Shown: positions 1,559 to 64,000 of the stretch, piece after piece | Numbering within the stretch: position 1 is the first letter of the stretch | Layout of the letters: every line of letters begins with the position of its first letter | DNA from: an uncultured virus (IMG/VR IMGVR_UViG_3300034284_002793) | Taxonomy: Duplodnaviria; Heunggongvirae; Uroviricota; Caudoviricetes | Direction: 5' to 3' (one strand) | DNA: 64,000 nt | IMG/VR virus record: IMGVR_UViG_3300034284_002793 | Span: 62,001 to 126,000 of that record | Program-made: the position numbers and the translations under genes | The notes under the pieces: generated by a model | What the model was told of the DNA's origin: nothing | What the model saw: only the letters and a program-made list of their open reading frames with translations | The model's database searches: none

Positions 1559-1563
1559 AGTTT

Positions 1564-2288: not shown

Positions 2289-2669
2289 ATGGATATCTAC
2301 TCAATACTCCTTATTTCAATAACAATATCAATGATTCTTTACTATGTGTATGAGACGAATGTTTTGTGGGAATATTTAAATAAAATTTCTGATTTATTAA
2401 ATTTTAATGGATCTAATAAGATTTTTTGCGGCATACTTTTGGTTAAGGCATATCCTAGCAGTGAAGAGCCAAACTATTTACAGTTTATTAATAAAATATA
2501 TAATACTTTTACAACAAGACTACTATCGTGCCCAATATGTTTAGGATTTTGGATATGTCTAATCGCTGGTGTATTATCTGATATTATTTTAGTGCCAACC
2601 TTTGCTTTTATTTCTCTAACAATGTATTACTTTATAAAAATTTTGACAAAACTATCTGCAAAAATATAA
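2289..2669 (+). CDS. Membrane protein with LLSCPICLGFW motif (DUF1360-like)
   Basis: Hydrophobic segments and CPxCxGFW motif; start MDIYS at 2289 preferred. Confidence 0.55.
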   Translation: MDIYSILLISITISMILYYVYETNVLWEYLNKISDLLNFNGSNKIFCGILLVKAYPSSEEPNYLQFINKIYNTFTTRLLSCPICLGFWICLIAGVLSDIILVPTFAFISLTMYYFIKILTKLSAKI

Positions 2670-2675
2670 TCCCTT

Positions 2676-5120: not shown

Positions 5121-5121
5121 T

Positions 5122-6345: not shown

Positions 6346-6347
6346 TT

Positions 6348-7124
6348 ATGCCTAAAACATCTCAAAAAACAGAAACAGTCGTAGTCAATTCAGATAGCAA
6401 TCCTACTGTAGATAGTGATTCGAAAATTTTTTCTAGAAATGAAAGTGGTCTTTTAAATAATACCAAATATAAATACAGCGACGATGGAACAATTAACTGG
6501 AAATCCATGGTTAAACCAGAATTCTTAGTCCCAAACAAGGATAAATTTACAGCAACAACAGATTTTAATTCTATTGACGTAACCCAGCTCGACGACAGTC
6601 AGCTTTTAATCCTTCTTGGCGGCATTAAAGATGTTGCTTGCATAAGGGGATTCTCTTCCGTTGATTATGATGTTATTACTGCCAGACAGGACTATGTTGC
6701 AGTTAAATGTAATATATCTTGGATTGCTAATTATGAAACTGGAATGATACCTGTAAAATTTTCAGCCTTAGCTGACGCCCATTTCGAGAATACGAGTGGT
6801 TTTGGTAATAAGTTTTTAATGGCAATTGCAGAAAATAGAGCGTTTATTCGCGCAGTTCGTAATTTTCTTAGAATTAATATTGTTGGCCAAGACGAAATCG
6901 ATCCAAAAAAGAAAAATGAAATTATTGAAGAATCCCAACCAACAAATCCAGCTAGTGTTTTAAACAAAGTTATGTCTGAGGTGGGCTTGAGTTTTGAAAC
7001 AATAAAGGCAAAGCTTGTAACTGAAAATGATCAAGATGCGGCTGAATGGAATGCAATTTCAGATATTCCCAAAAAACGAATATTTGAAATTATAGAGAGA
7101 ATTAAAAGAAAAAATAAAAACTGA
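6348..7124 (+). CDS. Putative single-strand annealing protein (Rad52/Sak-like)
   Basis: VAVKCNI...ALADA...MAIAENRAFIRAVRNFL resembles the annealase core helix motif. Confidence 0.5.
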   Translation: MPKTSQKTETVVVNSDSNPTVDSDSKIFSRNESGLLNNTKYKYSDDGTINWKSMVKPEFLVPNKDKFTATTDFNSIDVTQLDDSQLLILLGGIKDVACIRGFSSVDYDVITARQDYVAVKCNISWIANYETGMIPVKFSALADAHFENTSGFGNKFLMAIAENRAFIRAVRNFLRINIVGQDEIDPKKKNEIIEESQPTNPASVLNKVMSEVGLSFETIKAKLVTENDQDAAEWNAISDIPKKRIFEIIERIKRKNKN

Positions 7125-8865: not shown

Positions 8866-11135
8866 GAAAATGTATTAGATGTATTGTTTCTTTTTGAAGA
8901 AGTTATTATCCTAAAAGATTTTGGACGTATAGGTATTTCTTTATATGAGTAAGAAACTCTAAGACCCCTGCTATCTAAAGATGCGCTTAAAGACTCTAAA
9001 CCAGGGACAATTGGCAGGAAAAAACCATCACATTCCGCAGACAGAGTAGATAGCCATTTTTGACCATTTCCACCAATAGCCGCAGGAACTTCAAAAGAAG
9101 TAGATGGTTCATTTTCATTTGGCGTCACATCGGTTACGATAACACTGTGCGATAGCCCATAATCGCTATTGACTGGACCAGAAAATCCCCAAGAATTTAT
9201 AGCCTGAGCATATCCAGTTTGATTAGATGAGGAATATTCGCTTTTTATGGTTCTAATCGCTTTAAAGCTAGCAAGTGATGGCATAACTACCTTTATTGAC
9301 TTTCCATTACAATCAATAGAGTAAGATTTTCCTCTGGCATGCTCTAATCCTGGAGATAATTCTGCTGAATTTTCGGAACCATTATTAATTACAACATCAC
9401 GATTTGCATTAATTAAATTTGGAACAATATCTGCGCATTCATCAACTATATCAGGCTTGTCTTGAGGCGGAACAGGATCAAGTATTGCATTTGGGTCCTC
9501 ATAATCATAAACTTCTGTTAAGTCATTTGGATTTTCAGATTCAGATGCTGAAGTAATAGTAATATTATATCTTGGTCGCTTTACAAATATAATAACCTTT
9601 CCATCTTCTTCTATTTGCTTTCTTAATCTTTCCCCAGAAGATACGTAACCCCCAGACTCTTCATTGTTAGTAGTCGGTGCAACTAAAGTAACTGGAGTGC
9701 CTTCTTGGGGGAGGCTTTTTTGGTCATAAATTTGACATATTAAATCATGAGAAACTGTTTTAATACAATCTTCAACTGCCTGAGCAAAATCTGCCGCCTC
9801 AACATCTCCAGAAACATGCTCGCTTACACTGCGCCAATAGCCCTTTCTAACAATATTATTTTGATCTTCAAATGTGCTATTGTATGGATTTTTGCCTCTC
9901 TGTGAAGGGGGTGGATTAAAAGAAGTTTGTATTTTTTTAAAATTAAACTCGTCTCCACCAGAGCCATTAAAATCGTAAGATTCATCATAAGGATAATACA
10001 ATTCTTGAGTATATTCCTTTGATTGAATATTATTATTCAAAGGATATGCCAAATAAAAATCACCATCTCCATCAATATTTAAATATTTAAATATTGCATC
10101 TCGAAAATTAGTATTTTTTGAATCAAAATTAAAGTTTGTTGATAAAAAATTTCTCCATTTTGGATCTGTAAGATTTAAAGACATTTCAATTTTAGATAAT
10201 ACATTATAGCCTAATTTTCTATAGTCTCCATTTGTTAATGCATTATAAACTGATAATGATGGGCAAACTTTTTCTAAAACTTCATTATCGGTTGGAAAAT
10301 TTGGGTGAAGAATTGGAGAAATTGAAACATGCTTATTATCTGTAATATTTAACGCAGCTTCTTGGGTTTGTTTAGTTGGCCATCTTTCAAAAAACCAAGA
10401 TGATTGAGAAGATACCCCATCTCTAGTCGCTCCATAATCAAGAGACAAAATCCCACAACCTCCTTGAGGAACATTAATTCTTATAGAGCCATTTTTTATA
10501 GCAACTATTTCATCTTTTCTCCAGTCCCACCACCATCCAATTCCCACATCTGAATAAATACCACCTAAAACACTTCTGTATGTTCCTTCATAAGAGCACC
10601 TTAAATTTTCAGAAATTTTAGGCGCACCAATTATAGCTAATGCTTGATTTGCATTATATGTGACATTGCTAGAGTCACATGGGTTTGATGACCACTCTTC
10701 CTGCCCCAAACCTCCAGCCGAATAGCCAGCCTGTCTTTGCACAACTATATTTAAATTTTTAACTCCAAAACTAAAACTAACTCTTCCCCTATCATAGCTC
10801 GCATTTACTGCTGGAACACTTACGGTTTTTGCTATATTAATTGGCCTTCCGCCAAGCCCTCTTCTAAATAAAACTATGCATTTTTGATCAAGAGTTATAG
10901 AATTATCTATATACTCATAAGTTGTTAAAAATTTTCCTTGTTCTTTATGCGTAGAATAAGAAATTAGCTGCCCAATAAATTCTATACCACCAATGCCGCC
11001 GATATTAGATCGATTAAATCCACGATCGCCCAATGTAGTAACTGATAATTTTGCTGGAGAATCGCTAACAGAAGCGCTTAAAGATAGCGAAACTATATCT
11101 TTATTTGCTCCAATACTTCTTATTTGAATAGCCAT
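8862..11135 (-). CDS. Putative tail-tip hub / central tail protein
   Basis: 757 aa, downstream of the tape measure; GIGWWWDW segment in a hub-like position. Confidence 0.5.
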   Translation of the reverse strand: MAIQIRSIGANKDIVSLSLSASVSDSPAKLSVTTLGDRGFNRSNIGGIGGIEFIGQLISYSTHKEQGKFLTTYEYIDNSITLDQKCIVLFRRGLGGRPINIAKTVSVPAVNASYDRGRVSFSFGVKNLNIVVQRQAGYSAGGLGQEEWSSNPCDSSNVTYNANQALAIIGAPKISENLRCSYEGTYRSVLGGIYSDVGIGWWWDWRKDEIVAIKNGSIRINVPQGGCGILSLDYGATRDGVSSQSSWFFERWPTKQTQEAALNITDNKHVSISPILHPNFPTDNEVLEKVCPSLSVYNALTNGDYRKLGYNVLSKIEMSLNLTDPKWRNFLSTNFNFDSKNTNFRDAIFKYLNIDGDGDFYLAYPLNNNIQSKEYTQELYYPYDESYDFNGSGGDEFNFKKIQTSFNPPPSQRGKNPYNSTFEDQNNIVRKGYWRSVSEHVSGDVEAADFAQAVEDCIKTVSHDLICQIYDQKSLPQEGTPVTLVAPTTNNEESGGYVSSGERLRKQIEEDGKVIIFVKRPRYNITITSASESENPNDLTEVYDYEDPNAILDPVPPQDKPDIVDECADIVPNLINANRDVVINNGSENSAELSPGLEHARGKSYSIDCNGKSIKVVMPSLASFKAIRTIKSEYSSSNQTGYAQAINSWGFSGPVNSDYGLSHSVIVTDVTPNENEPSTSFEVPAAIGGNGQKWLSTLSAECDGFFLPIVPGLESLSASLDSRGLRVSYSYKEIPIRPKSFRIITSSKRNNTSNTFS

Positions 11136-11146
11136 AAATTGAAAAA

Positions 11147-12931
11147 TTACAGATTATAAATGATTACACCAGTATTGTAGGTTATTATATCAATTTCATC
11201 GCTTTTTTCTACTTCTTGATAATCAAATCCAAGATAAAGCCTTTGCCCGTTTAGCCAAATCATGGATGTTTTTTTATTAAAATTAAATGGTACTAAAAAA
11301 TAAGAACCAGAAGTGTTTTTAATATTATAAGTACCAAAGCCTAATGTATTTTTTTGAACTGTTAATACATTATAGTTTCCACTTATATTTCTTAATATCG
11401 TATTGGTACCACTGTAATCAATTCCAGAATTTAAAAGTTGACCATTTAAAAAAACAAATGAATTATTAAAATTTAAACTTGATATATTATTGCCACTATT
11501 TATCTGCCCAGTCATTAACAGTTCAGATTTTGGCCAAAAATCAATAAGTGAATTATTTTGATTTATAAAACCATAATTTGAATTACTAAATATTTTATTT
11601 CCAGAAATAAAGTAATCTTCTGATGGTAAATAGTTAATATTTCCACTTTGAATAAGCTCATCATATCCAGAAGATCTCGTTTGCAATTGCCCATTATAGT
11701 ATAATCCAGAAAAATCTTCGCCTATAATGCTATCATATCCATAAGAATTATCTGCATTAATATAATAAAGATTTGTGAAGTTTATTCCCGCATCAATTCC
11801 AGAATATCCATATATTGATAAAATATCATTAGGATCGATATTAAATGATAAAGATATAGCATTTTGATAATTATAAATATATTCTGGCCGAGATACAAAT
11901 GCGGAATTATTAGTAATTGAATATTCGATATAATAACCAGAATCATATTCAAATACATTTGTTCCAGTAAATACACTTGAGCAAAGTGAAAATAAATTTT
12001 GTCCACTAGAATATCCTAAAAAATAACCAGTAAAAACTTTTTGAGCGAATTGATTGAAAATCTCATTATTAAAATCTAAAAATGATTCGTGTGTTGCAAA
12101 ATATTCTCCACTACCAGTACTTAATACAATCTCATTCAGCACGCCACTTGATTGAGCAGAGCACTGTGTTATTTTTATAATATCGCCATTTAATATGCCA
12201 GTTTGTCCAGAGATAGCGCCAGTAATAGTATTTGAATTAATAGATGAAATAATGCCACTAACAAATTCATTTTCAAATATGGAAGAGCTTAAATAATCTG
12301 AATTGTAAATAAATATTTCAGCAACTTCAGCAGATAAAAATCTTCCAGATGGCAAGCTTTGACTTCCTCCAATATAATAATTATTTGATTTTTTAAAATT
12401 TTCATCAAGTGGAGCAAATATTTTTTGAAACGAATTAGATTCTGCATCAAATAAGCCCATTGAAATAGAATTCGATCCATTAATAGAAAAGCTTACAATT
12501 CCAGTTTTATTTGCTTTTAAGCTGTGGCATACAGTAATAGGCCCATAAATTTTATGAGCGTATTCAAAATATGGATAGCCAGCATAGTTTATTCCAAAAT
12601 TGATTCCGGAATCATAATTATAATTTGCAAAAAAAACATTGTCAGATTTTGCATTCCCTAATTTATACGCAAAAATAAAAGATAAAGAATCTCCACTAAA
12701 ATAATTTAATTTGGCATAGCTTTGGCCATCAAAACTTGCAAATCCAGATTTCGTCCAAAAATTTCCAGAATTTACCAGCTGTAATTGTTCAGCGCGACTT
12801 GTCCAGCTTTCGCTTGGAATATTAATTAGCCCAGATATTCCAGTATTAGAAAAATCAAAATAACCAACTATCTGCTCCGTAGATAGATTTTCATTTTTAT
12901 CAAAAAAATATTTCATTGAATTTGCTGGCAT
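11147..12931 (-). CDS. Tail protein with LamG/ConA-like N-terminal domain
   Basis: YFDF...FDGQSY...YIGG...AEIFIYN pattern and three (Y/F/W)xNGQ repeats; start uncertain (12931 or 12946). Confidence 0.6.
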   Translation of the reverse strand: MPANSMKYFFDKNENLSTEQIVGYFDFSNTGISGLINIPSESWTSRAEQLQLVNSGNFWTKSGFASFDGQSYAKLNYFSGDSLSFIFAYKLGNAKSDNVFFANYNYDSGINFGINYAGYPYFEYAHKIYGPITVCHSLKANKTGIVSFSINGSNSISMGLFDAESNSFQKIFAPLDENFKKSNNYYIGGSQSLPSGRFLSAEVAEIFIYNSDYLSSSIFENEFVSGIISSINSNTITGAISGQTGILNGDIIKITQCSAQSSGVLNEIVLSTGSGEYFATHESFLDFNNEIFNQFAQKVFTGYFLGYSSGQNLFSLCSSVFTGTNVFEYDSGYYIEYSITNNSAFVSRPEYIYNYQNAISLSFNIDPNDILSIYGYSGIDAGINFTNLYYINADNSYGYDSIIGEDFSGLYYNGQLQTRSSGYDELIQSGNINYLPSEDYFISGNKIFSNSNYGFINQNNSLIDFWPKSELLMTGQINSGNNISSLNFNNSFVFLNGQLLNSGIDYSGTNTILRNISGNYNVLTVQKNTLGFGTYNIKNTSGSYFLVPFNFNKKTSMIWLNGQRLYLGFDYQEVEKSDEIDIITYNTGVIIYNL

Positions 12932-41022: not shown

Positions 41023-41706
41023 TTACATTATCATTTCTTTGACAATTTTCTTTGCTTTTATTACAATCTGCGCTCTTATTTTTTTAACAAATTTATATCC
41101 AGTTTTTGTAGATCCATTTTTATAACCAAGCATTGTTATAACTTCTGTTTCTGGATATCCATCTACAAATAAATATGTATAAACCTTTTGCTGAACTGGC
41201 GTTAAAGATTTTAACATTTCGCTATGAACTTTTGGAACAAACGATTCAAAATCAAAACCGCTGGAATCTGATGCGCGAGCATCAAACTCATTGCCCTCAC
41301 CAAAAATTCTTTCATCATTTACGCTAACTGGCAACTTAACATCATAAGCATGTTTCTTTGTTTTCTCCCATTTTGCATAATCAGCACATTTAGAAGATTG
41401 AACATTATATAATTTACAATTATTTCCGCCAGCATTATGTGGACAATTTAAGCATGGTCGGGCATAGTTAGAGTAATTATTTCTAACAAGATTTATAATC
41501 TGATTTGTAATAACAGTATTTAGCCACGGAAGTAGCGCCATCTCTGGATTCCACTTTTCCCATTTTTTAAAAATATGCAGTCTTAACTTTTGCTCTACAT
41601 CATTAAAATCCATCCATGCAATGGATGTTAATTTCCACTGAGAACGTCTTTTAGCTATCTCTTGATTTATTATATCCAAGCAGGACTCGAAAGATGGGCG
41701 TTCCAT
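41023..41706 (-). CDS. Second phage sigma factor (ECF-like) with Cys-rich insert
   Basis: DFNDVEQ..HIFKKW..WLNTVITNQIINLVR (region 2); LTPVQQKVY...EVITMLG (region 4). Confidence 0.7.
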   Translation of the reverse strand: MERPSFESCLDIINQEIAKRRSQWKLTSIAWMDFNDVEQKLRLHIFKKWEKWNPEMALLPWLNTVITNQIINLVRNNYSNYARPCLNCPHNAGGNNCKLYNVQSSKCADYAKWEKTKKHAYDVKLPVSVNDERIFGEGNEFDARASDSSGFDFESFVPKVHSEMLKSLTPVQQKVYTYLFVDGYPETEVITMLGYKNGSTKTGYKFVKKIRAQIVIKAKKIVKEMIM

Positions 41707-54816: not shown

Positions 54817-56112
54817 ATGCCTCTAAATATTTTAAAAAAACGCCATATCGAAACAGAAATTGAGAATAACACTCATGTAGATGGTGAATGGAAAGTTGAG
54901 ATTGTATGCCAAAATGGTGAAATTAAAAAGCCTCTTGGAGATAAATGGCGAAAAAACTTAATTCAAGATAGAGGATTGAATATATTCAATGGCACGTATG
55001 GAAGTTTTAGCAGCAATGCTAATGCGAATACTAATTCAATATCAGCCTTTATAAGTTCGGCATATTTTGGAAATAGCAGTGCTGATCCGTTTGCTACAGA
55101 TAAAACATTTTTAACTAGCACAAACAATAATATATACTATACAAGAAGAAACACTCTAAACGTACCAGAAAATACAAATCCAAACAGCGATGATTTAGTA
55201 ACGGGGTCACGAACTTTTACAAAAGTATGGGATTTTGCATCTCTGGCTGCTGGCGAAACGCGCGATGTTAGAGAAATAGTGATTGCGGCCAATACTTATG
55301 ATGGTTTTAATAATTCTACCGATCAAAGCAAGGGGACCCAAGGAACATTTACAACAAACATACCAGTAATTTCGCGCTTTATTCTTCCATCAACAGTAAC
55401 TCTAACTGAATTTCAATTTTTAAGACTTTACTATTCAATAAAAGTAACAGTTCCAGCAATAGTTACGCCAGTTCCGATTACATTGTCAAATAACGGTTTT
55501 GATGGAACTGGTCAATTAAAATTAATAGGCCTATGGTCTAGTATATTTTCTGGAAATGGCCACTTATGGCAGCGCAGAAACTTTGGCACTTTGATTAACG
55601 TAGTTTCAACTCCACATACGCCATGGTCGCTAATCGGAAGAGATGGAATGGCAGCTTTACCGCTTAAAGGCAATTCAAATCCAAATTTAAATTTTAATTT
55701 TCCAGCAGTTGGTGCTGATTTTTCAATATCGTATGCAAATGCGTTATATGATGCAACACAAACTGTACTCCATACTTCACCAGGCTGCTCTGTTAGTCCA
55801 TCGTCAGCAGTTCAACAAACGGTTGTAAACCAGTCTGTGTCAAGAGAGGCTACTATGCTGTTTCAAGCAAATAACCCAAGCGTGAATAGCCCACTTGCTG
55901 GATTTGTTTTCCTTCCTCGCGGTGAAGGCAATAATTTTACGGGAGGATCGACTCCAACTTTTACCGAAGCTCTTACTACAGATACTGCTCTTGGAAGATA
56001 CATGTGGTACTGGAGGTTCACAGACCCAACATTTACAAATCCAAGATCTGTAATTAAAGATGTCAACTATGGCCTTGTGGTTAATTTGCGGCAAACAATT
56101 GCAAGAGGCTAA
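54817..56112 (+). CDS. Virion protein, paralog family A
   Basis: GEWKVEI..PLG..KNLIQDRGL, LRLYY, PAIVTP and GTGQLKLIG. Confidence 0.6.
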   Translation: MPLNILKKRHIETEIENNTHVDGEWKVEIVCQNGEIKKPLGDKWRKNLIQDRGLNIFNGTYGSFSSNANANTNSISAFISSAYFGNSSADPFATDKTFLTSTNNNIYYTRRNTLNVPENTNPNSDDLVTGSRTFTKVWDFASLAAGETRDVREIVIAANTYDGFNNSTDQSKGTQGTFTTNIPVISRFILPSTVTLTEFQFLRLYYSIKVTVPAIVTPVPITLSNNGFDGTGQLKLIGLWSSIFSGNGHLWQRRNFGTLINVVSTPHTPWSLIGRDGMAALPLKGNSNPNLNFNFPAVGADFSISYANALYDATQTVLHTSPGCSVSPSSAVQQTVVNQSVSREATMLFQANNPSVNSPLAGFVFLPRGEGNNFTGGSTPTFTEALTTDTALGRYMWYWRFTDPTFTNPRSVIKDVNYGLVVNLRQTIARG

Positions 56113-56778
56113 TTATTTATCTAAAAATTTTAGTTTGATTTTGCCATTACTGTCTATTAATGCATAGCTAACTGGTAGGTCGCATTGGGAGCCCAAGTTA
56201 ACGCATTCAACCCAATCCACAGTTTTGTGTTCGGGCATATGGGTGTGGCCAAACACCACAGTACTGCATCCTAGATCGCGGCCATGATGTGCAACCCGGC
56301 GCAACACTCTTTCAGCCGAAGAACGCCACGTTTTTATTTTTCGCTTGAGCTTGCGGGTGAATTTTTGCCCCTTGTCAATTTTTTGCAAGAAATAATATAT
56401 TCCAGATGCTATTTCAGTGAGTACTGGCCGCATTTTAATAATATAATCCCAACGATCACCGTGGACAAAATAGAAACGCTTTCCATTAATAACCTCAATG
56501 TGTTCGTGTTTAAAATCAAAACCTAATAGCGCACTAACAGTATCCAGATCGCGGTCATGATTACCCTTAATAAAAATGCATTTTTTATTTTTTGATAGTT
56601 TGCGCAATAATGATAATACTTTCCACTGACGTTTGCATAAACGATGAATATTGTACGAATCCAGCAAATCTCCACATATTATTAAACTATCATACGTTTC
56701 CTCTTCAAGTATTTTTAAAACTAAATCTGCTTGGCATACAGGGCTGCCAAGATGTATGTCTGAAAGGCACAGTATCAT
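56113..56778 (-). CDS. Calcineurin-like metallophosphoesterase (LpxH-like)
   Basis: SDIHLG, GDLLD, GNHD, HGD and GHTH motifs. Confidence 0.85.
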   Translation of the reverse strand: MILCLSDIHLGSPVCQADLVLKILEEETYDSLIICGDLLDSYNIHRLCKRQWKVLSLLRKLSKNKKCIFIKGNHDRDLDTVSALLGFDFKHEHIEVINGKRFYFVHGDRWDYIIKMRPVLTEIASGIYYFLQKIDKGQKFTRKLKRKIKTWRSSAERVLRRVAHHGRDLGCSTVVFGHTHMPEHKTVDWVECVNLGSQCDLPVSYALIDSNGKIKLKFLDK

Positions 56779-56880
56779 AATGTTTTATATTATTTTTTTT
56801 ATTTATTACTTTTTTACCTCACTTGATTACACTCTTCAATCATTTATAGCATATTACAATATAGAAACAAACAGTCCATG

Positions 56881-56986
56881 TATTTTTAATTCTTTTTTAT
56901 TATAATATATGCTGATATTTACAAAGATCGATATATACCAGTCTATTAATAAAGCCATCCTTTATTTTTAATTCTTTTTTATTATA
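56881..56986. repeat. 24-bp direct repeat, 2 copies
   Basis: tatttttaattcttttttattata at 56881-56904 and 56963-56986. Confidence 0.85.
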
Positions 56987-57175
56987 TATGGGTTGATTTT
57001 ATTGGCGTTAGGATACCCTAACCACCCTGATAAGTAAAAGAAGGATAGATTTAAAAGTTGTAGAGTTTTAAAAATAGGCCCTAGCGACCAAAAGCTCAAA
57101 CGCTTGTATGAATTTTTTTCAAAAATAGGGGGTACTTGTCAACAAAAAAAAGTTTTAAAAAAGATAAAAAATCCC

Positions 57176-57203
57176 TTGCTTTCTCGGTGATCTGTGGTAG
57201 AGT
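57176..57203 (+). promoter_or_regulatory. sigma70 promoter (leaderless)
   Basis: TTGCTT-16-(TGG)TAGAGT, ATG 6 nt later; upstream A-tracts. Confidence 0.75.
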
Positions 57204-57209
57204 GTAGAC

Positions 57210-57395
57210 ATGAAGAAGAAATACTACACCAGCACAGAGATCCTTGAGTATGCGAATAAGAACAACGCAGCTTGCATCTCTGCATCTGTGAGCCTGCGAG
57301 TGTTCCGCTACTGGACTAGCAAAGGTCAATACGAAGTGAAGTTCTACAGGGTAGAGCCTTGCGTGTGGGAGAAAAAAATCGTAAAAAAACCCTAA
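57210..57395 (+). CDS. Early hypothetical protein
   Basis: 61 aa; own promoter. Confidence 0.65.
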   Translation: MKKKYYTSTEILEYANKNNAACISASVSLRVFRYWTSKGQYEVKFYRVEPCVWEKKIVKKP

Positions 57396-57402
57396 AGATC
57401 CC

Positions 57403-57430
57403 TTGACTTTAATGACAGCTCTGATAGATT
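57403..57430 (+). promoter_or_regulatory. sigma70 promoter (leaderless)
   Basis: TTGACT-16-TAGATT, ATG 6 nt later. Confidence 0.75.
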
Positions 57431-57436
57431 AAATAC

Positions 57437-57667
57437 ATGAATACATTCGAAGACTACATCAAACACAACGGCAAAGAATACTACCTCTGCACAGAGTATG
57501 CGTTCGATCACACTGATCAGTTGCAACTCTCTGGCTTTGTCTTGACTGATGAAGACGGCGAAGACATCTCGCAAGATGACTTCGAAGCGAACAAGGATCT
57601 TTACGATCATGTCTGCATGGTTCTTGCTAACGAAGATGCTACCTGCTACGGCGGCGCACCTTGCTAA
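57437..57667 (+). CDS. Acidic early hypothetical protein
   Basis: 76 aa, Asp/Glu-rich. Confidence 0.7.
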   Translation: MNTFEDYIKHNGKEYYLCTEYAFDHTDQLQLSGFVLTDEDGEDISQDDFEANKDLYDHVCMVLANEDATCYGGAPC

Positions 57668-57671
57668 CACT

Positions 57672-57758
57672 ATGACACACATCATTATGACATACATTGC
57701 AGAGGCGCTTGCCGTGGTGCTTATCCTCCTGCTTGGCGTTGCGATTCTCTCGATCTAA
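57672..57758 (+). CDS. Small membrane peptide (28 aa)
   Basis: MTHIIMTYIAEALAVVLILLLGVAILSI; its stop codon lies inside repeat 1. Confidence 0.5.
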   Translation: MTHIIMTYIAEALAVVLILLLGVAILSI

Positions 57759-57832
57759 GTTGTTCTAAATCAACGACTTACAACGGGCCACCCTGCGCGC
57801 GCGCGTAAGTCCTTGATAATGAGGCACTTACG
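57754..57832. repeat. 79-bp double-palindrome element, copy 1
   Basis: Boxes 57754-57782 and 57804-57832. Confidence 0.9.
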
Positions 57833-57884
57833 AATGTCAAGTAAAAAAGATAAAAAAAATTTCACACAATCGCAAAAAAATCCC

Positions 57885-57912
57885 TTGCTTTTTCGGTGGC
57901 CTGTGATACATT
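57885..57912 (+). promoter_or_regulatory. sigma70 promoter (leaderless)
   Basis: TTGCTT-16-TACATT, ATG 6 nt later. Confidence 0.75.
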
Positions 57913-57918
57913 GTATGT

Positions 57919-58266
57919 ATGAAAGATAAAGAAAACACCACGTTCAACGTCAACGGAACCCTTTGCACGCTCGTCGTCTCGGAAGATCGGGAGGATGATT
58001 GCACGAAGCTTTGGCATGACCTCGTCAGCGTTGACACTGGCAAGGTCGTCGCAACCCTCGACTGGTCGCCCTACTCTTGCCCCTCTAATGAGGAAGTGCA
58101 GCAGATCATCGACCTCGGCCTGCCTAATGGCTTGCGTTGGGCTAACTCTCACCCTTCTTCTCGCTTCAACTTCGATAGCCTCATGCTGGCGAAATACCTC
58201 TCTGGCTACGAGCATCCCGATGGCGGCAAGATCGAACTGGTCTTCCGCGTTCGCTTGGCCGCATAA
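57919..58266 (+). CDS. Early hypothetical protein
   Basis: 115 aa; EDREDDCTKLWH and LDWSPY; own promoter. Confidence 0.75.
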   Translation: MKDKENTTFNVNGTLCTLVVSEDREDDCTKLWHDLVSVDTGKVVATLDWSPYSCPSNEEVQQIIDLGLPNGLRWANSHPSSRFNFDSLMLAKYLSGYEHPDGGKIELVFRVRLAA

Positions 58267-58309
58267 AAAAACTCTTGCGCTTCCACTCAACATCCCATAC
58301 TCTAACAAT

Positions 58310-58519
58310 ATGAACAGCATCCACGACGACTACAACACGCAACCGCAATCCGACGAATACGCGACCGAGCACGAGGAAGTGCGCGGCACGTTCGCCGCCG
58401 AGCCTGCCGTTGAGCAGGAGCCGCAACCCTATGATGGGTTTGAGGGGCAGTGGGCTGGGGATGGGTCGGGCTTCGACGACCTCGCAGACTGGGGCGAGCA
58501 GGAGGGCTGGGACACGTAA
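58310..58519 (+). CDS. Highly acidic early protein (69 aa)
   Basis: Start MNSIHDD follows TTGCGC-17-TACTCT by 6 nt; GDGSGFDDLAD motif. Confidence 0.75.
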   Translation: MNSIHDDYNTQPQSDEYATEHEEVRGTFAAEPAVEQEPQPYDGFEGQWAGDGSGFDDLADWGEQEGWDT

Positions 58520-58590
58520 GAGTGTCATAAACTTTCTCCGAACGTTTCGATGCGTGTCTCCATGACGCGGGAATAAACGATGAGGAGACG

Positions 58591-58616
58591 AAGCGCCCGT
58601 TTAAACGGGCGTTTCA
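58591..58616 (+). terminator. Palindrome / possible terminator
   Basis: Perfect palindrome cgcccgtttaaacgggcg followed by ttt. Confidence 0.5.
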
Positions 58617-58637
58617 ATTTGCTAAAATTCAATGTTG

Positions 58638-58716
58638 CGTAAACCCTTGATATTCAACAACTTACGCTGGCGCGCGGGGCGCGCGGCCGTAAGTCCTTGA
58701 TAATTAACGACTTACG
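58638..58716. repeat. 79-bp double-palindrome element, copy 2
   Basis: Boxes 58638-58666 and 58688-58716. Confidence 0.9.
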
Positions 58717-58853
58717 TAACGTCATCAAGAGTGTCATAAAGAATGTCATAGCGCAAAATTCAAACGCTCGTTTGCCAAAACGTCAACAAAAATAGTTTCG
58801 CTAATCGCAAAAAAATATCTCGCTTTTCGCGCGTCCTGTGCTATTCTGTATAC

Positions 58854-59036
58854 ATGAGAAACAACAACAGAAGCTGGCGCGACGAAGAACGCGAAGCAAC
58901 CCTCGACTACCCGCTAGGTGTGGATCGTGAAGATCCCGCCTACCAGCAAAGCCCAGACGCTTACGAGCGTGAAATCGAGCGCCTTAATCGGCACGAAGGC
59001 TGGGAGCGTAATCGCGGTGGTTACTACCGCCGATGA
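58854..59036 (+). CDS. Early hypothetical protein
   Basis: 60 aa; TCGCTT-16-TATTCT, ATG 6 nt later. Confidence 0.7.
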   Translation: MRNNNRSWRDEEREATLDYPLGVDREDPAYQQSPDAYEREIERLNRHEGWERNRGGYYRR

Positions 59037-59079
59037 AAAATCGCTTGACTTTCAGCCCCATTTCACCGATACTTTCAAC

Positions 59080-59244
59080 ATGACAGAAAACACCACAACT
59101 GGCTGGCCCGAAGTCTGGAACTTCGACGAACCCAAAGACGACAACCTCACGCCCGAACAAGCGTTCGACATCCTTTTCGGCTACGCCGAGGAGCGTCATC
59201 GCAACGACCCGTGCGCTCGTCCCGCCCCTAAACCCAAACACTAA
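59080..59244 (+). CDS. Early hypothetical protein (54 aa)
   Basis: Start MTENTT follows TTGACT-17-GATACT by 6 nt. Confidence 0.65.
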   Translation: MTENTTTGWPEVWNFDEPKDDNLTPEQAFDILFGYAEERHRNDPCARPAPKPKH

Positions 59245-59248
59245 CACT

Positions 59249-59458
59249 ATGACAAACACAGACGGCATCATCAAGTCGCTTGAAACTCTCATCAAGCATG
59301 AGAAAGCAATTCAGCGTCAAGAAAAAGAAATTGAAAAATTAAAAGACATCATTGATGGCTCTTTGCAGACGATGCAGGGCCTTCTTGTGTTGAGCGCTGT
59401 TCTCTCAAAAGAGATTGAAAGCTTGCACAATAATAAGCCTTCTTTTGGACTAAACTAA
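59249..59458 (+). CDS. Small coiled-coil early protein
   Basis: 69 aa; coupled to the upstream gene. Confidence 0.65.
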   Translation: MTNTDGIIKSLETLIKHEKAIQRQEKEIEKLKDIIDGSLQTMQGLLVLSAVLSKEIESLHNNKPSFGLN

Positions 59459-59459
59459 C

Positions 59460-59615
59460 ATGAGCAAAATCATTATGACAATCGACACGCGACCGCTTGC
59501 GCGTGTCATAGAGCGCAGCGTCCGCAAGGCATCTTGCCGCCCATCCTTCGCCATGCGTGTCAAGAAAAAATTCGCGCGCAAGGCAAAGTTTTTTCGCGGT
59601 TGGTCTGATCAGTAA
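59460..59615 (+). CDS. Small basic protein (51 aa)
   Basis: MSKIIMTIDTRPLARVIERSVRKASCRPSFAMRVKKKFARKAKFFRGWSDQ; its stop codon lies inside repeat 3. Confidence 0.55.
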   Translation: MSKIIMTIDTRPLARVIERSVRKASCRPSFAMRVKKKFARKAKFFRGWSDQ

Positions 59616-59689
59616 AGCTTTGAATATCAACGACTTGCGGCGGCGCGCCCCGCCGCGCGGCATAACCCATTGCAAATCAACGACTTGCA
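59611..59689. repeat. 79-bp double-palindrome element, copy 3
   Basis: Boxes 59611-59639 and 59661-59689. Confidence 0.9.
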
Positions 59690-59699
59690 ATATATAGTA

Positions 59700-59716
59700 T
59701 TCAGGTAGCGTGCCAA
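59700..59716 (-). promoter_or_regulatory. sigma54-like -24/-12 motif
   Basis: TTGGCACG-CTAC-CTGAA on the minus strand. Confidence 0.45.
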
Positions 59717-59791
59717 TATTGGCGAATCTATAAAAATAAAAAAATAAAAAAACCTATTGACGAAAACATCAAACCGAGTTAGCATAAATGT

Positions 59792-60256
59792 ATGAAAAAT
59801 AAAATTATAACAATCATAGTCACTGCATTGGTAACCGCAGCAGTTACTTTCGTTACTCTATCACTTACAGATAGCGAACCGCTGACCGACTGGGTAAAAA
59901 TGGCGAAGTTAAGAATTAAAGGATGCTCTGATCCCGAGGCGCACCTGAGCAACGCCAAGCGGATAAAGGGTTGGCTTACCGCAGTTGGAGAGCATGAGCC
60001 TGTTAGTGTGAGAATCAGAGAAGGTGTAGGCTTGCCGCCAGACCAGAGTTTGGCTCCTAAAGGGGTTAAACTCACTCCAACAGCTACAGAAATGTTCATT
60101 TTAGTTCGTTCTTCTGATTTTGAGAACAATATCCGTGAGATATACGAATTTGATCTCATGAAAATTATGGTGGATAAGGATGCAAGAAAACAATTAAGAG
60201 AACTTATTACCAAAACTAAAGCACAGAGCAATGAGTTTGGTTTCGGTAGTAACTAA
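59792..60256 (+). CDS. Membrane-anchored early protein
   Basis: N-terminal TM/signal segment; TTGACG-17-TAGCAT promoter, ATG 6 nt later. Confidence 0.7.
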   Translation: MKNKIITIIVTALVTAAVTFVTLSLTDSEPLTDWVKMAKLRIKGCSDPEAHLSNAKRIKGWLTAVGEHEPVSVRIREGVGLPPDQSLAPKGVKLTPTATEMFILVRSSDFENNIREIYEFDLMKIMVDKDARKQLRELITKTKAQSNEFGFGSN

Positions 60257-60326
60257 CTGAAATTCAACAACTTGCAGAGCCAGATCGGGCCGCGCGGCGT
60301 AACTCCTTGATATTCAAAGACTTACG
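60248..60326. repeat. 79-bp double-palindrome element, copy 4
   Basis: Boxes 60248-60276 and 60298-60326. Confidence 0.88.
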
Positions 60327-60336
60327 CAAAACGCTA

Positions 60337-60353
60337 CGCAATAGCCATGCCAA
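60337..60353 (-). promoter_or_regulatory. sigma54-like -24/-12 motif
   Basis: TTGGCATG-GCTA-TTGCG, near-consensus. Confidence 0.55.
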
Positions 60354-60427
60354 GTTGCAGAAAAAAAATTTCACACAATCGCAAAAAAATCCCTTGCATT
60401 TTTGCGCGTCCGCGCTATATTGAAATC

Positions 60428-60943
60428 ATGAAAGAGAGAAAATCACTAAACGAAAAGCCTCTGACTTGCCTGTTCGTCGGCGTTACCCTCGCTTTGGTAT
60501 CAGCAGGAGTTGCCATTTATGGGTTGCGGTTTGGGTTTGCGTCTATTGCCTTTTTGCTTGTTGCTGCTGCAATCTTAAATATCGCAGCGTGGTTTTTTGC
60601 CACCCCTGTCGTCTCTTTCGTTGGCGATTTTGTAGGAAAATTTTTTACTGGAAGTCAAAACTTTAGCAAGCCCCAGCCTGCTTACAGCCTGCCAGATGGT
60701 CTTGCCGCTACCGGACAAAACGCTTGCGCTATCCTTGCCTACAATGAACTTGCAAAAAATCATCCCGAAGAAATCTTGCCTCATCTTCGCGTGATGAGAA
60801 TATGGATTGAAAAAATGAATGACGTTGACGCTGCGGTTATGGCTTACAATCTCGCCTTGAAAAAAATTCGCGGACAAAAAAATCGCAACGAGTTTACAAA
60901 AATGGCAAAAAATAATTTCAGCAAATTCATCAGCTTTGAATGA
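60428..60943 (+). CDS. Two-TM membrane protein with TPR-like C-terminus
   Basis: Start MKERKS follows TTGCAT-16-TATATT by 6 nt. Confidence 0.7.
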   Translation: MKERKSLNEKPLTCLFVGVTLALVSAGVAIYGLRFGFASIAFLLVAAAILNIAAWFFATPVVSFVGDFVGKFFTGSQNFSKPQPAYSLPDGLAATGQNACAILAYNELAKNHPEEILPHLRVMRIWIEKMNDVDAAVMAYNLALKKIRGQKNRNEFTKMAKNNFSKFISFE

Positions 60944-61008
60944 GTGTCATAGCAATGTCATAAACGCTCGGTCAAACGGGCGTTTTACTTTGCGCGAAAC
61001 CAATTCTA

Positions 61009-61087
61009 TATAAACCCTTGAAAATCAACGACTTACGGCGGCGCGCCCCGCCGCGCGGCGTAACCCATTGCAAATCAACAACTTACA
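61009..61087. repeat. 79-bp double-palindrome element, copy 5
   Basis: Boxes 61009-61037 and 61059-61087. Confidence 0.9.
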
Positions 61088-61097
61088 ACATACATCA

Positions 61098-61114
61098 TTC
61101 AGATAGCGTGCCAA
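61098..61114 (-). promoter_or_regulatory. sigma54-like -24/-12 motif
   Basis: TTGGCACG-CTAT-CTGAA. Confidence 0.45.
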
Positions 61115-61196
61115 CTTTGCAGAGGGGCAAAAAATAAAAAAAATAAAAAACGAAAAAATCCCTTGCGTTTTTGCAGTCCTGTGCTATTCTTTAAGC

Positions 61197-61349
61197 ATGG
61201 AAAAGAAAATGACTCAATATGCGGACAAGCTCAACGCCTTCCGCGCTGGCGAAATCACCGAGGACGAATGGAAAGCGTTCTGTTTTGAGGCTCTCTCCGA
61301 GATTCTCGAAGACACGAAAGATGTCCTCATCAGGCTGAAAAATGCTTGA
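61197..61349 (+). CDS. Early hypothetical protein (50 aa)
   Basis: MEKKMTQYADKLNAFRAGEITEDEWKAFC...; TTGCGT-16-TATTCT, ATG 6 nt later; not in the ORF track. Confidence 0.7.
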   Translation: MEKKMTQYADKLNAFRAGEITEDEWKAFCFEALSEILEDTKDVLIRLKNA

Positions 61350-61380
61350 CCCAATCGCAACAATCAAACATACTACGACC

Positions 61381-61557
61381 ATGAAACAAACACCACAAAA
61401 AGCCCAACTCTGGGCAGTCGGAAACAAAGTCTATCGCGTCATCCGCAACGAAGGCGACAAGACTCACGTTCATCATCACGGGCAAATGGCCCTGTTCTAT
61501 ACGCGCCATCTGAAAATGGCGACACCTTCACAAGTTGCAGAATACTTGGGAAAATAG
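61381..61557 (+). CDS. Early hypothetical protein (58 aa)
   Basis: Start MKQTPQ follows TTGACC-17-CATACT by 6 nt. Confidence 0.65.
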   Translation: MKQTPQKAQLWAVGNKVYRVIRNEGDKTHVHHHGQMALFYTRHLKMATPSQVAEYLGK

Positions 61558-61593
61558 TTTGACAATCACCACAAAACCTAACAGAATAACAAC

Positions 61594-61809
61594 ATGACAA
61601 AAAAACAATTCACCGCAATCGCTAACATCTTGGGAAAACGCTTGGCCGAAAAAGTCAAAGCACCCATCGGAGAATACGAAGTTGTCGAAGTCCTCGCGTT
61701 GGACTTGGCGAAATACTTCTCGACAGAAAACCCTCGTTTCGACGAAGATCGCTTTCTGGAAGCTGTTTTTACTCACACCCCTAACATCCCTGTGGGATCA
61801 TATAAATAA
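61594..61809 (+). CDS. Early hypothetical protein with NPRFDxxRF motif
   Basis: TTGACA-17-CAGAAT promoter; ENPRFDEDRFLEA. Confidence 0.75.
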   Translation: MTKKQFTAIANILGKRLAEKVKAPIGEYEVVEVLALDLAKYFSTENPRFDEDRFLEAVFTHTPNIPVGSYK

Positions 61810-61813
61810 TCAC

Positions 61814-61993
61814 ATGAAAAAATACATCACATTCGACCGCATTGCCTACGCAATGTCCCTCTCCACCTTCATCTTCATCGCCGTGACGCTTTGCGCTGCT
61901 TGCGTTGAATTGCAAAACAGAACCAGCAAGAACCAAAAGCAAATGCAGGAAGAAGTCCGCGCAATGTTTGCCCACATCGAGGCACCTCTATGA
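61814..61993 (+). CDS. Small membrane protein
   Basis: MKKYITFDRIAY..., one TM segment. Confidence 0.55.
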   Translation: MKKYITFDRIAYAMSLSTFIFIAVTLCAACVELQNRTSKNQKQMQEEVRAMFAHIEAPL

Positions 61994-62190
61994 TTACCCC
62001 CAATATCCAAAAAGCTCTTGAGTCAAACGGAGTTCGTTTCTTTGCAAAAGACTTTCTCATGGAAGGTATGCGGAAAGACTGCGTTGACGCCGTGCATGAT
62101 GCAAAACTCGTTTACGAATTGCTAAAAGAACGCATGGAAAAAATGCTTGCAATCGAACCCGAAGACGAATACATTAAAGCCAATGAGTAA
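61990..62190 (+). CDS. Early hypothetical protein
   Basis: ATGA overlap with upstream gene; KDCVDAVHDA motif. Confidence 0.7.
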   Translation: MITPNIQKALESNGVRFFAKDFLMEGMRKDCVDAVHDAKLVYELLKERMEKMLAIEPEDEYIKANE

Positions 62191-62371
62191 AGACCAAGTC
62201 AAAGCCGTGTGCGATTACTCGCATGATGTCATAATGAAAATCAAAGCCGTGTTCGGATTCAAAAAGAAAAGTCCTTCGCTTCTTTGTCATAGTCTCGCGC
62301 ACCTCAACACCGCGACATGGCTTGAGCGCGCGGTCTGCAACGGCACAATCATGGACTACAAGCCGCGATAA
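62183..62371 (+). CDS. Early hypothetical protein
   Basis: Start MSKDQV follows TTGCAA-17-TACATT by 7 nt; stop codon abuts repeat 6. Confidence 0.55.
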   Translation: MSKDQVKAVCDYSHDVIMKIKAVFGFKKKSPSLLCHSLAHLNTATWLERAVCNGTIMDYKPR

Positions 62372-62450
62372 CGTAAAGCGCTAATAATCAAGCACTTACG
62401 GCGGCGCGCCCCGCCGCGCAGCGTAAGTCGTTGAAAATCAATCACTTAGG
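62372..62450. repeat. 79-bp double-palindrome element, copy 6
   Basis: Boxes 62372-62400 and 62422-62450. Confidence 0.9.
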
Positions 62451-62460
62451 CAAAAGCACT

Positions 62461-62477
62461 TTCATACAGTGTGCCAA
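62461..62477 (-). promoter_or_regulatory. sigma54-like -24/-12 motif
   Basis: TTGGCACA-CTGT-ATGAA. Confidence 0.4.
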
Positions 62478-62560
62478 GTCCGCTGTCAAGTAGAAAAAAA
62501 ATATTTTTTTAATCGTAAAAAATTCCTTGCGTTTTTGGCATATTGTGGTATTCTTTAATT

Positions 62561-62800
62561 ATGAAAATCACCAAGCCCGACCTCTACGAAGCCCTCATCC
62601 AAGCGCGTGTCGCCTTATCGAAAGACATCCGCGAAACTTTGCGCGGTCGCCACCTCTCCTACGTTCAAGACCTCTCGCGGAAATCCATCCGCGAAAAAAT
62701 CGCGGCCTATCGGTTGCTCTCCAACCTCTCCACGATCAACGCGGAAAGCTACTCGGACAACCGCTCTCTGCGTCACGTTAAAAAAGCTCTTGCCAAGTAA
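62561..62800 (+). CDS. Basic early hypothetical protein
   Basis: Start MKITKP follows TTGCGT-16-TATTCT by 6 nt. Confidence 0.7.
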   Translation: MKITKPDLYEALIQARVALSKDIRETLRGRHLSYVQDLSRKSIREKIAAYRLLSNLSTINAESYSDNRSLRHVKKALAK

Positions 62801-62825
62801 CGCAATCTCTGACAAAATCACCACC

Positions 62826-63509
62826 ATGAAACTACTAAGCACCAACAATACCAAAATCAAAAAAGGCGAAAAGCTCGGCTGGCGCACTTACGGCCTTTCA
62901 CTTTCACCCGCTGGCAAAAGTGGAAAACAATTCTGTCCGCATCGCTCGGCTGGCTGTGAGTTTGCTTGTCTCGACACTTCGGGCATGGGCATCTTCTCAA
63001 ACGTCCAAGACGCACGCCTTGCAAAGTCGCGTTTCTTCATCGACAACCGCAACGAGTTTCTCGCTCAGTTGCATAAAGAATTGCACAATGCCGAAAAGTG
63101 GAGCGCAAAAAATAATACGCCTGTGGCCGTGCGTCCGAACGTGCTTTCTGATCTGCCTTTCCATAAGCTGATCGACATGGCGCGCTTTCCGTCAATTCAG
63201 TTTTACGATTACACGCCGAACCTTCAACGCATGATGCAGTTTCTAAACGGCGAGTTGCCTAAAAATTATCACCTGACCTTCTCGCGCAAAGAGGACAATC
63301 AGCATCGTGTCCACGCTGTTGTTGCCGCTGGCGGTAACGTGGCCGCTGTCTTTAGTGAGTTGCCCGAAACCTACCTCGGAAAGCCTGTCATAAACGGCGA
63401 CGAAAGCGACTTGCGTTTTCTCGACGCGCAGGGCGTGATCGTTGGACTCAAAGCAAAAGGCAAAGCTCTCAAAGATCAATCTGGCTTTGTGGTGCAAGTT
63501 GGCGTATAA
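62826..63509 (+). CDS. GP88-like radical-SAM-related protein
   Basis: CPHRSAGCEFAC cysteine cluster, RPNVLSD, QFYDYT, YHLTFS, GDESDLRFLD and GLKAKG; start MKLLST at 62826. Confidence 0.75.
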   Translation: MKLLSTNNTKIKKGEKLGWRTYGLSLSPAGKSGKQFCPHRSAGCEFACLDTSGMGIFSNVQDARLAKSRFFIDNRNEFLAQLHKELHNAEKWSAKNNTPVAVRPNVLSDLPFHKLIDMARFPSIQFYDYTPNLQRMMQFLNGELPKNYHLTFSRKEDNQHRVHAVVAAGGNVAAVFSELPETYLGKPVINGDESDLRFLDAQGVIVGLKAKGKALKDQSGFVVQVGV

Positions 63510-63518
63510 TGAAAACCT

Positions 63519-63584
63519 ATGGAAATCATAATCCTTCTTGCTGGCATTATCGGTGGCGCATTACTAATAAATAAAAAATTATGA
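63519..63584 (+). CDS. Small hydrophobic peptide (21 aa)
   Basis: MEIIILLAGIIGGALLINKKL; ATGA overlap with the next ORF. Confidence 0.4.
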   Translation: MEIIILLAGIIGGALLINKKL

Positions 63585-63739
63585 CACTAAACCTAATCGC
63601 ACGAAAAAACTTGTTTCGCTTGTCTGAATACTTTTTCAGCCTTGCGGTATGGTGGGAACGCGCTGGCGTTATGACACTCCAAAAACTTTTCTTTATGGGG
63701 TGGCAAAAATGCCTTGACACACGAGACAAATTACGGTGA
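63581..63739 (+). CDS. Early hypothetical protein (52 aa)
   Basis: MTLNLIARKNLFRLSEYFF...; stop codon abuts repeat 7. Confidence 0.5.
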   Translation: MTLNLIARKNLFRLSEYFFSLAVWWERAGVMTLQKLFFMGWQKCLDTRDKLR

Positions 63740-63818
63740 CATAACCTACTGAAAATCAACGACTTACGGCGGCGCGCCCCGCCGCGCGGCGTAAGTGCTT
63801 GAAAATCAACGACTTATA
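63740..63818. repeat. 79-bp double-palindrome element, copy 7
   Basis: Boxes 63740-63768 and 63790-63818. Confidence 0.9.
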
Positions 63819-63828
63819 CAAAATGCCA

Positions 63829-63845
63829 TTCAAGAAGCATGCCAA
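63829..63845 (-). promoter_or_regulatory. sigma54-like -24/-12 motif
   Basis: TTGGCATG-CTTC-TTGAA. Confidence 0.45.
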
Positions 63846-63946
63846 CTCACAGAAAAAACGCTCGTTTGAATTTTCGTCAACAAAAATACTTTTCAGAATC
63901 GCAAAAAATCCATTGCATCGTGCCGTGCCTGTGCTACTCTTTACCT

Positions 63947-64000
63947 ATGCAAGCGAACACCATCACCGACGACTTCAACACGCAAACCCAAAGCGACGAG
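63947..64000 (+). CDS. Truncated ORF, paralog of 58310
   Basis: MQANTITDDFNTQTQSDE; TTGCAT-16-TACTCT, ATG 6 nt later. Confidence 0.65.
   Translation, partial: MQANTITDDFNTQTQSDE

Follow-up and report, generated by a model that had tools for sequence, protein, structure and literature searches.

Phage transcription programmes are known to run on host sigma-70, on phage sigma factors or on phage polymerases. Sigma-54 is the one bacterial sigma factor that stays silent until an ATPase fires it, and to our knowledge it has almost no documented role in phage genomes. We analysed a 64,000-nt stretch (hereafter the window) of an uncultured tailed virus (IMG/VR record IMGVR_UViG_3300034284_002793, Caudoviricetes), in which a short minus-strand box resembling a sigma-54 promoter lies at a fixed distance from five copies of a twin-palindrome element that separates small early genes. 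Our literature searches found a sigma-54-type promoter in phages for YuA only, and no paper that describes antisense sigma-54 boxes repeated in a phage genome. In Pseudomonas phage YuA, a single sigma-54-like promoter in sense orientation was confirmed by promoter trap (bioRxiv 10.1101/2023.10.13.562163, citing Ceyssens et al. 2008). As far as that account describes YuA, the two phages would be alike in carrying a host sigma-54-type promoter in their genome, whereas the one sense promoter of YuA differs from the multi-copy antisense box of the present phage, which is locked to a repeat and is known here from its sequence.

Parts of the arrangement have parallels elsewhere. The sigma-54 enhancers used by FlrC in Vibrio cholerae lie downstream of the transcription start (review PMC6504787), and the two dyad sites of the present element would likewise stand downstream of a predicted start, at about +3 to +27 and +53 to +77; unlike the FlrC enhancers as reviewed there, the phage palindromes also occur without the box (53 of the 113 elements considered below), so that an enhancer role cannot be their only one and they must also have a role of their own. 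The promoter-early stem-loop (PeSL) cassettes of T4-type phages, as described by Arbiol et al. 2010 (PMC2839356), resemble the present units in being small and repeated, in placing strong sigma-70-like promoters between non-essential early genes, and in being shuffled by recombination; a PeSL, in contrast, has a terminator stem-loop and, in that description, no sigma-54-type box, whereas the present repeat is a twin dyad round a guanine-cytosine (GC) core whose RNA fold is no better than that of shuffled sequences. The early region of the Streptomyces phage phiC31 (repeat families D1/D3 and D2/D4/D5) is similar in combining intergenic copies of a dyad operator with a second conserved, asymmetric box, but that box (9 copies, a 23-28-mer) is unlike a -24/-12 site and points with the genes. 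We take these phiC31 repeat families to be those named 'early promoter' and 'CIR operator'. A resemblance of phiC31 early promoters to -24/-12 sites was not borne out by these repeat families.

In the window, five minus-strand 16-mers of the form TTGGCAYR-N4-HTGM each lie at a fixed distance from element copies 3 to 7 (Table 1). Read on the plus strand, TGCCAA starts at 59711, 60348, 61109, 62472 and 63840, and the first G of the minus-strand GG falls at 59714, 60351, 61112, 62475 and 63843, in every case 25 nt from the repeat ends at 59689, 60326, 61087, 62450 and 63818 (repeat family D2). An earlier reading of this DNA (the original prediction) had reported these five coordinates, their strand and the invariant distance, all of which we recover in the sequence, and had noted that the -12 block matches the consensus in copy 4 only, which is true within the window (TTGC, against CTGA, CTGA, ATGA and TTGA in the others). 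A further box-bearing element copy (c10) is found 4.3 kb outside the window, at record base 130150, with the same offset. TTGGCAYRNNNNHTGM is matched 6 times in the window, where 0.41 matches are expected, and none of 100 shuffles reaches 6; five of the matches are box copies 3-7 and the sixth is an unrelated site at 10037-10052. A generic sigma-54 consensus allowing at most one mismatch gives 13 matches against 6.9 expected (3 of 100 shuffles reach 13), a weak enrichment over the whole window, and only 2 of these 13 are element copies.

Comparison of the six box-bearing copies of this genome separates the box from its surroundings. Mean pairwise identity is 0.73 in the 17-nt box and 0.75 in the element, as against 0.41 in the 12-nt linker between them and 0.35 in the 20 nt that follow the box, and the invariant columns are distributed in the same way (8/17 in the box, 0/12 in the linker, 0/20 in the following sequence). 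Since the box is conserved while the linker and the following 20 nt vary, it is kept by more than shared descent. Judged by its conservation, the box is a real, selected feature.

To place the box in its family, we used a 19-nt pattern of the GC core, which returned 47 loci on 22 viral contigs; five of these contigs were dropped as GC-rich (59-64%) chance matches without an element, leaving 17 related contigs. A profile search for the element on these 17 contigs and the present genome gave 119 places, of which 113 are followed by 40 nt or more of sequence. TGCCAA occurs within 60 nt downstream in 60 of the 113 elements, in all 60 at index 23 and in all 60 with the box antisense to the early genes; no decayed box was seen among the other 53, which carry other modules. 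At least one box is present in 16 of the 17 related contigs. When five relatives were searched whole (three of them complete, 166-178 kb) with the box pattern TTGGCAYGNNNNNTGM, 21 matches were found; in each genome they lay on a single strand, the one antisense to the early genes, and 20 of the 21 fell in the early block, while the reversed-pattern control gave 0 matches. The near-confinement of matches to the early block shows the box to be part of a boundary unit and not a general class of phage promoter.

From 17 contigs come 44 distinct copies of the box, in which T-27, T-26, G-25, G-24, C-23, A-22, T-14 and G-13 are present in 44/44. Variation is restricted at -21 (C 36, T 8) and -20 (G 41, A 3), and position -12 is A in 25 copies and C in 19, never G or T; CTGC and TTGC versions of the -12 block are common in the relatives. 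The five spacer columns hold 0.6-1.0 bit each, and the flanks out to -43 mostly 0.1-0.4 bit. The original prediction had suggested checking the conservation of a GG-N10-GC spacing in relatives. The register is rigid, since an ungapped alignment of all 44 copies keeps it, and GG and G-13 are universal; the final C, at -12, is found in only 19/44. The distance from the box to the -35 hexamer of the promoter behind it falls into classes of 25-27, 45-46, 54-55, 61-63, 73-76 and 84-85 nt in the related loci; between five of the six, the differences are multiples of about 10 nt, perhaps a sign of helical phasing, perhaps just of modular build-up.

By this alignment, the box has the sequence, the spacing and the pattern of invariance of a -24/-12 site for RNA polymerase with sigma-54 (RpoN), a likeness claimed by the original prediction for the window and seen to extend to the 16 box-bearing contigs. 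The -24 blocks of two bound E. coli sites, pspA and zraP, are identical to the TTGGCAYG of the phage box (PMC4591121, Table 1), and in the box TG follows in the correct 10-bp register. According to the same source, the positions that rarely deviate among E. coli sites found by chromatin immunoprecipitation sequencing (ChIP-seq) are GG and TGC, and those important for sigma-54 are 3, 4, 14 and 15 of the 17-mer. The latter four are invariant in the 44 phage copies, as are four of the five rarely deviating positions; the fifth, C-12, departs. The tabulated E. coli sites also resemble the phage box in their fixed spacing, with TG one helical turn downstream of an invariant GG, in tolerating C or T at -21, in including an A-12 variant, and in that many are antisense or silent (PMC4591121). 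They differ in that A-12 makes up 57% of phage copies and 4% of E. coli sites, and in that the phage box is repeated within a boundary module and never faces a gene. By our count from the tables of that paper, 125 of the 135 bound E. coli sites have C at -12, 6 have A and 4 have T, and the six A-12 sites include the experimentally confirmed hydN promoter (PMC4591121). Because that promoter has A-12, this base does not prevent function, and by analogy an A at -12 would be compatible with sigma-54 binding and function in the phage box.

We tentatively propose, with slightly more doubt than belief, that the host's sigma-54 polymerase docks at the box as a poised antisense promoter. In this reading the host holoenzyme, bound as a closed complex, would be oriented towards the element, lying directly against its right palindrome and back to back with the sigma-70 promoter on the other side. 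If the E. coli rule that transcription starts 19 nt downstream of the motif centre (PMC4591121, table footnotes) is applied, the predicted +1 falls at the outer edge of the right palindrome, at 59689, 60326, 61087, 62450 and 63818, 2 nt outside the palindrome, which agrees with the start at the element's edge put forward in the original prediction. Sigma-54 depends on an AAA+ activator to open DNA, and the phage has no gene for one; either a host activator would therefore control firing or the complex would stay silent. From a fired box, polymerase would run through the element and enter the preceding early cassette head-on. The FlrC enhancers show that such sites can lie beyond the start, and the twin palindromes located just downstream of the box could serve as its operator or downstream enhancer; a host activator is possible, and the palindromes may be considered a candidate downstream enhancer by position only. 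The alternative offered by the original prediction, that a parked closed complex acts as a roadblock, is weakened by the report that RNA polymerase with sigma-54 bound inside E. coli genes had no roadblock effect (PMC4591121), and we therefore rank it low. A more elaborate version, which we regard as improbable, is that this widespread family of large lake phages wires host sigma-54 into each cassette boundary as a zero-leak antisense switch, the twin palindrome being the downstream enhancer at which a host AAA+ activator that senses stress or nutrients would act, such that the state of the cell would gate early transcription cassette by cassette and the choice of C or A at -12 would tune the lock.

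Several results weigh against a role of sigma-54 at the box. A-12 is found in 25/44 copies of the family and 4/5 copies of the window as against 6/135 E. coli sites (Fisher p = 2e-13), and T-27, G-20 and the pyrimidine-rich spacer vary less than an E. coli sigma-54 site would need them to; such tight constraint across the box fits a protein that reads the whole 17 nt. No box faces a gene: all 60 are antisense, and the five relatives gave no gene-sense matches. Half of the elements (53/113) work without a box. The six family genomes searched (the present one, G000, and its relatives G001-G005, three of the six complete) encode no sigma-54 DNA-binding domain (Sigma54_DBD) and no true enhancer-binding ATPase; PF00158 has no match in G000 and weak matches in 4/5 relatives, where the two proteins scanned are RuvB-like AAA+ proteins. 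No run recorded as RNA was found among those containing window positions 57000-64000, and two candidate RNA runs from wastewater (X23 and X24, with 5-6% of words) are probably DNA (contigs) of a relative and uninformative on expression. Finally, searches with the phage proteins and the early block name no host in which rpoN could be sought. The early region had no megablast match among cultured phages, and tblastn gave 21-24% identity to Bacillus and other phages for the large terminase, at most 47% to Pelagibacter, Xanthomonas and Mycobacterium phages for a GP88-like protein, about 27% for DnaE and no match for the phage sigma factor, none of which names a host. The GDP-mannose dehydratase, searched against one genome per species, hit 11 loci at 29-46% identity scattered over phyla, and the 14.6-kb early block gave, among the matches listed against 401 genomes of one order, tRNA-level matches only (76-86%). 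Neither a ribosomal S21 gene nor a WhiB gene is present in the phage, and no conserved minus-strand ORF (open reading frame) was seen.

Some of these points would be accounted for if the box were recognised by a different sequence-specific protein, whether an early phage product or a host factor, acting together with the binder of the palindromes, for example in regulating the sigma-70 promoter or in early shut-off, the likeness to sigma-54 sites being coincidental and the host perhaps lacking rpoN. The constraint goes beyond what sigma-54 needs (T-27 in 44/44, G-20 in 41/44, a spacer of the form S-Y-W-Y-H), A-12 dominates in a way it does not among the tabulated E. coli sites (25/44 versus 6/135), the box is welded to an operator-like dyad element and found nowhere else in genomes of 166-178 kb, and about 30 small early ORFs of no assigned function could encode such a binder. 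The distance classes that are multiples of about 10 nt are also as expected for a factor bound on one face of the helix, but they represent a few module types shared by descent, and the phasing rests on some 6 independent cases. Furthermore, the box is neither palindromic nor a direct repeat; its two asymmetric blocks one helical turn apart are the hallmark of sigma-54 sites, and an 8/8 match to the -24 block with TG in register is improbable by accident. We consider a different protein rather unlikely, while giving it serious weight as the main rival.

It seems quite improbable that the boxes are decoys, at which the sigma-54 holoenzyme binds but never fires, soaking up the small sigma-54 pool of the host as phage DNA replicates and blunting its sigma-54-dependent stress responses. 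Sigma-54 does bind stably without transcribing, and most of the 135 E. coli sites are inactive, a decoy role being discussed for them (PMC4591121); in its -24 half the phage box has the strongest consensus possible, each genome has 6 boxes, and the phage encodes no activator. A decoy, however, needs neither a fixed offset nor a single orientation, and yet both are found in 60/60 copies; half of the boundary units have no box, and the weak -12 block is not what a high-affinity sink would select.

The box might also be a passenger, a functionless part of a longer version of the repeat spread by recombination between boundary elements. The elements and their adjoining modules are indeed mosaic, cassette order differs among relatives with joints at elements (59651 to 63789), and the left part of the box comes in a few interchangeable versions; the at least 8 invariant columns in 44 distinct copies, set against 0 in the linker and in the 20 nt downstream even when the copies of a single genome are compared, and the lack of decayed copies among those seen make this explanation very improbable. 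Equally hard to credit is a signal at the RNA level, by which the 3' untranslated tail of the upstream cassette's plus-strand transcript would be processed or bound by a protein, for although the box would fall in the tail of read-through transcripts and 5/7 window elements abut or overlap the end of the upstream ORF with no classical terminator before them, no pairing partner or covariation was seen and the folding of element plus box does not exceed that of shuffles, whichever strand is taken (z = -1.8 to +0.5). Other candidates were rejected: the box as a minus-strand sigma-70 promoter with TTGGCA as its -35 (a plausible -10 in 2/6 copies only, by eye), as a plus-strand promoter (no conserved -10 after TGCCAA), and as an RNA hairpin, in view of the same folding result.

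The element to which the box is attached is 76 nt long, occurs in 12 copies in the whole record (7 inside the window) and divides the early block. In the consensus of 93 distinct copies from the family, two dyad-symmetric halves, GTAA-N4-TTGA-N3-TCAA-N4-TTAC, have their centres 50 bp apart and flank a conserved asymmetric GC core. Because its RNA folds no better than shuffles, we read the element as a double-stranded protein-binding unit, not a hairpin. The original prediction had linked the sigma-54 motif to IHF. The IHF consensus WATCAANNNNTTR is matched on the forward strand by 58/93 left and 30/93 right halves (on the reverse strand by 23 left and 7 right halves), but the link to IHF is not specific, the halves being conserved symmetrically as in a dimer operator; this symmetry would suit a dimeric operator protein as well as IHF. 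No HU/IHF gene was found in the present genome or in four relatives (G001-G004).

Most window elements sit tightly against the genes before them. The first TAA of copy 3 is the stop codon of ORF 59460-59615, and in 5/7 window elements (57756, 59612, 60249, 62373 and 63741) the upstream stop codon lies inside the start of the element or at most 2 nt before it; copies 2 and 5 are instead preceded by hairpins resembling intrinsic terminators (58591-58614, and about 60962-60990, inverted repeat I16). A relative at 85-90% identity in the wastewater runs X23/X24 has the same cassettes in another order, and its cassettes are joined within elements (59651 to 63789 is one such joint), which is what elements acting as recombination seams would produce.

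Downstream, a sigma-70-type promoter is recognised by pattern after 6/7 window elements, with 46-73 nt between the box and the -35 hexamer in the window. Each boundary unit that carries a box thus reads, in order, stop codon, element, 12-nt linker, minus-strand box, A/T-rich modules, sigma-70-type promoter and leaderless ATG, and the comparison of loci indicates that the box is one optional, conserved module of this unit between early-gene cassettes. Extra conserved modules lie between box and promoter in a few fixed arrangements (window 63846-63912 and related loci); they include a 16-bp perfect palindrome, TCAAACG-N2-CGTTTGA, and the strings CGTCAACAAAAATACTTT and AATCGCAAAAAAATCCCTTGC.

Table 1. 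Elements, sigma-54-type boxes and sigma-70-type promoters of the early-gene boundaries in the window
Feature	Position	Strand	Description	Search
Element copy 1	57756..57831	+	without box; A-rich tract and promoter directly after	nhmmer, alignment
Element copy 2	58639..58714	+	without box	nhmmer, alignment
Element copy 3	59612..59687	+	palindrome, GC-rich core, palindrome	nhmmer E 1.8e-20, alignment
Element copy 4	60249..60324	+		nhmmer E 4.3e-17
Element copy 5	61010..61085	+		nhmmer E 1.5e-20
Element copy 6	62373..62448	+		nhmmer E 1.4e-21
Element copy 7	63741..63816	+		nhmmer E 7.9e-23
Sigma-54-type box copy 3	59701..59716	-	TTGGCACG-CTAC-CTGA; predicted +1 near 59689	
Sigma-54-type box copy 4	60338..60353	-	TTGGCATG-GCTA-TTGC; predicted +1 near 60326	
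Sigma-54-type box copy 5	61099..61114	-	TTGGCACG-CTAT-CTGA; predicted +1 near 61087	
Sigma-54-type box copy 6	62462..62477	-	TTGGCACA-CTGT-ATGA; predicted +1 near 62450	
Sigma-54-type box copy 7	63830..63845	-	TTGGCATG-CTTC-TTGA; predicted +1 near 63818	
Sigma-70-type promoter, copy 3 unit	59757..59794	+	TTGACG, 17-nt spacer, TAGCAT, 6 nt; leaderless ATG 59792	
Sigma-70-type promoter, copy 4 unit	60394..60430	+	TTGCAT, 16-nt spacer, TATATT, 6 nt; leaderless ATG 60428	
Sigma-70-type promoter, copy 5 unit	61163..61199	+	TTGCGT, 16-nt spacer, TATTCT, 6 nt; leaderless ATG 61197	
Sigma-70-type promoter, copy 6 unit	62527..62563	+	TTGCGT, 16-nt spacer, TATTCT, 6 nt; leaderless ATG 62561	
Sigma-70-type promoter, copy 7 unit	63913..63949	+	TTGCAT, 16-nt spacer, TACTCT, 6 nt; leaderless ATG 63947	

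The source record is 132,627 bp long (about 88% complete by estimate), with the window covering record bases 62001-126000, and such phages are present in lake metagenomes of 21 studies. Its genes include those of a tailed phage (tape measure protein, large terminase, portal, PhoH) along with a DnaE-type polymerase, DnaB, ClpP and a sugar-nucleotide cluster. GC content along the window is 30-39% up to position 56,000, 38.5% in 56,001-58,000 and 44-50% from 58,001, and it is 43-48% in the final 13 kb of the whole record; this sharp step from about 32% to about 47% falls where the early block begins (window 56000-64000; record 119000-132627). Within the GC-rich block lie about 30 small ORFs, hardly any of which has a family match, and the four tRNA genes of the phage (Asp, Lys-UUU, Cys and Met). 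In front of most genes of the block stand TTGNNN, a 16-17-nt spacer and TAnnnT, with exactly 6 nt left before the ATG (window 57200-64000; L001:1-14627). Such a sigma-70-type promoter 6 nt before the ATG would give leaderless mRNAs, each gene being its own transcription unit.

Other features were noted in and around this block. Two AT-rich ORFs (L001:8862-9131 and 11878-12048) show a strong GGAGG ribosome site instead of the leaderless arrangement. Past the right end of the window and directly upstream of tRNA-Cys, a stretch of about 750 nt (L001:9925-10677) has no convincing ORF and, at E up to 0.1, no counterpart in Rfam; it may represent a structured RNA not described before. Two sigma-70-family genes are encoded by the phage itself, at window 41023-41706 (minus strand, region 2) and 1564-2211 (minus strand, regions 2 and 4); both are kept in 4/4 relatives searched and presumably drive middle or late genes of the AT-rich part. 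The large cluster for sugar-nucleotide synthesis and transfer (record 40000-63200, L051 and L052; window 102-7124) encodes GDP-mannose 4,6-dehydratase, RmlD-like and Polysacc_synt_2 enzymes, a C-methyltransferase and several glycosyltransferases, and may decorate the virion or the host surface.

If the box does belong to sigma-54, a conserved, multi-copy site of this type would be a new use of sigma-54 polymerase, as an antisense switch, an insulator or a decoy, and it would also offer a sequence-based clue to the host, in which rpoN would have to be present. Should the box instead be the site of another protein, it would represent a new promoter-proximal regulator site together with an operator-like partner.

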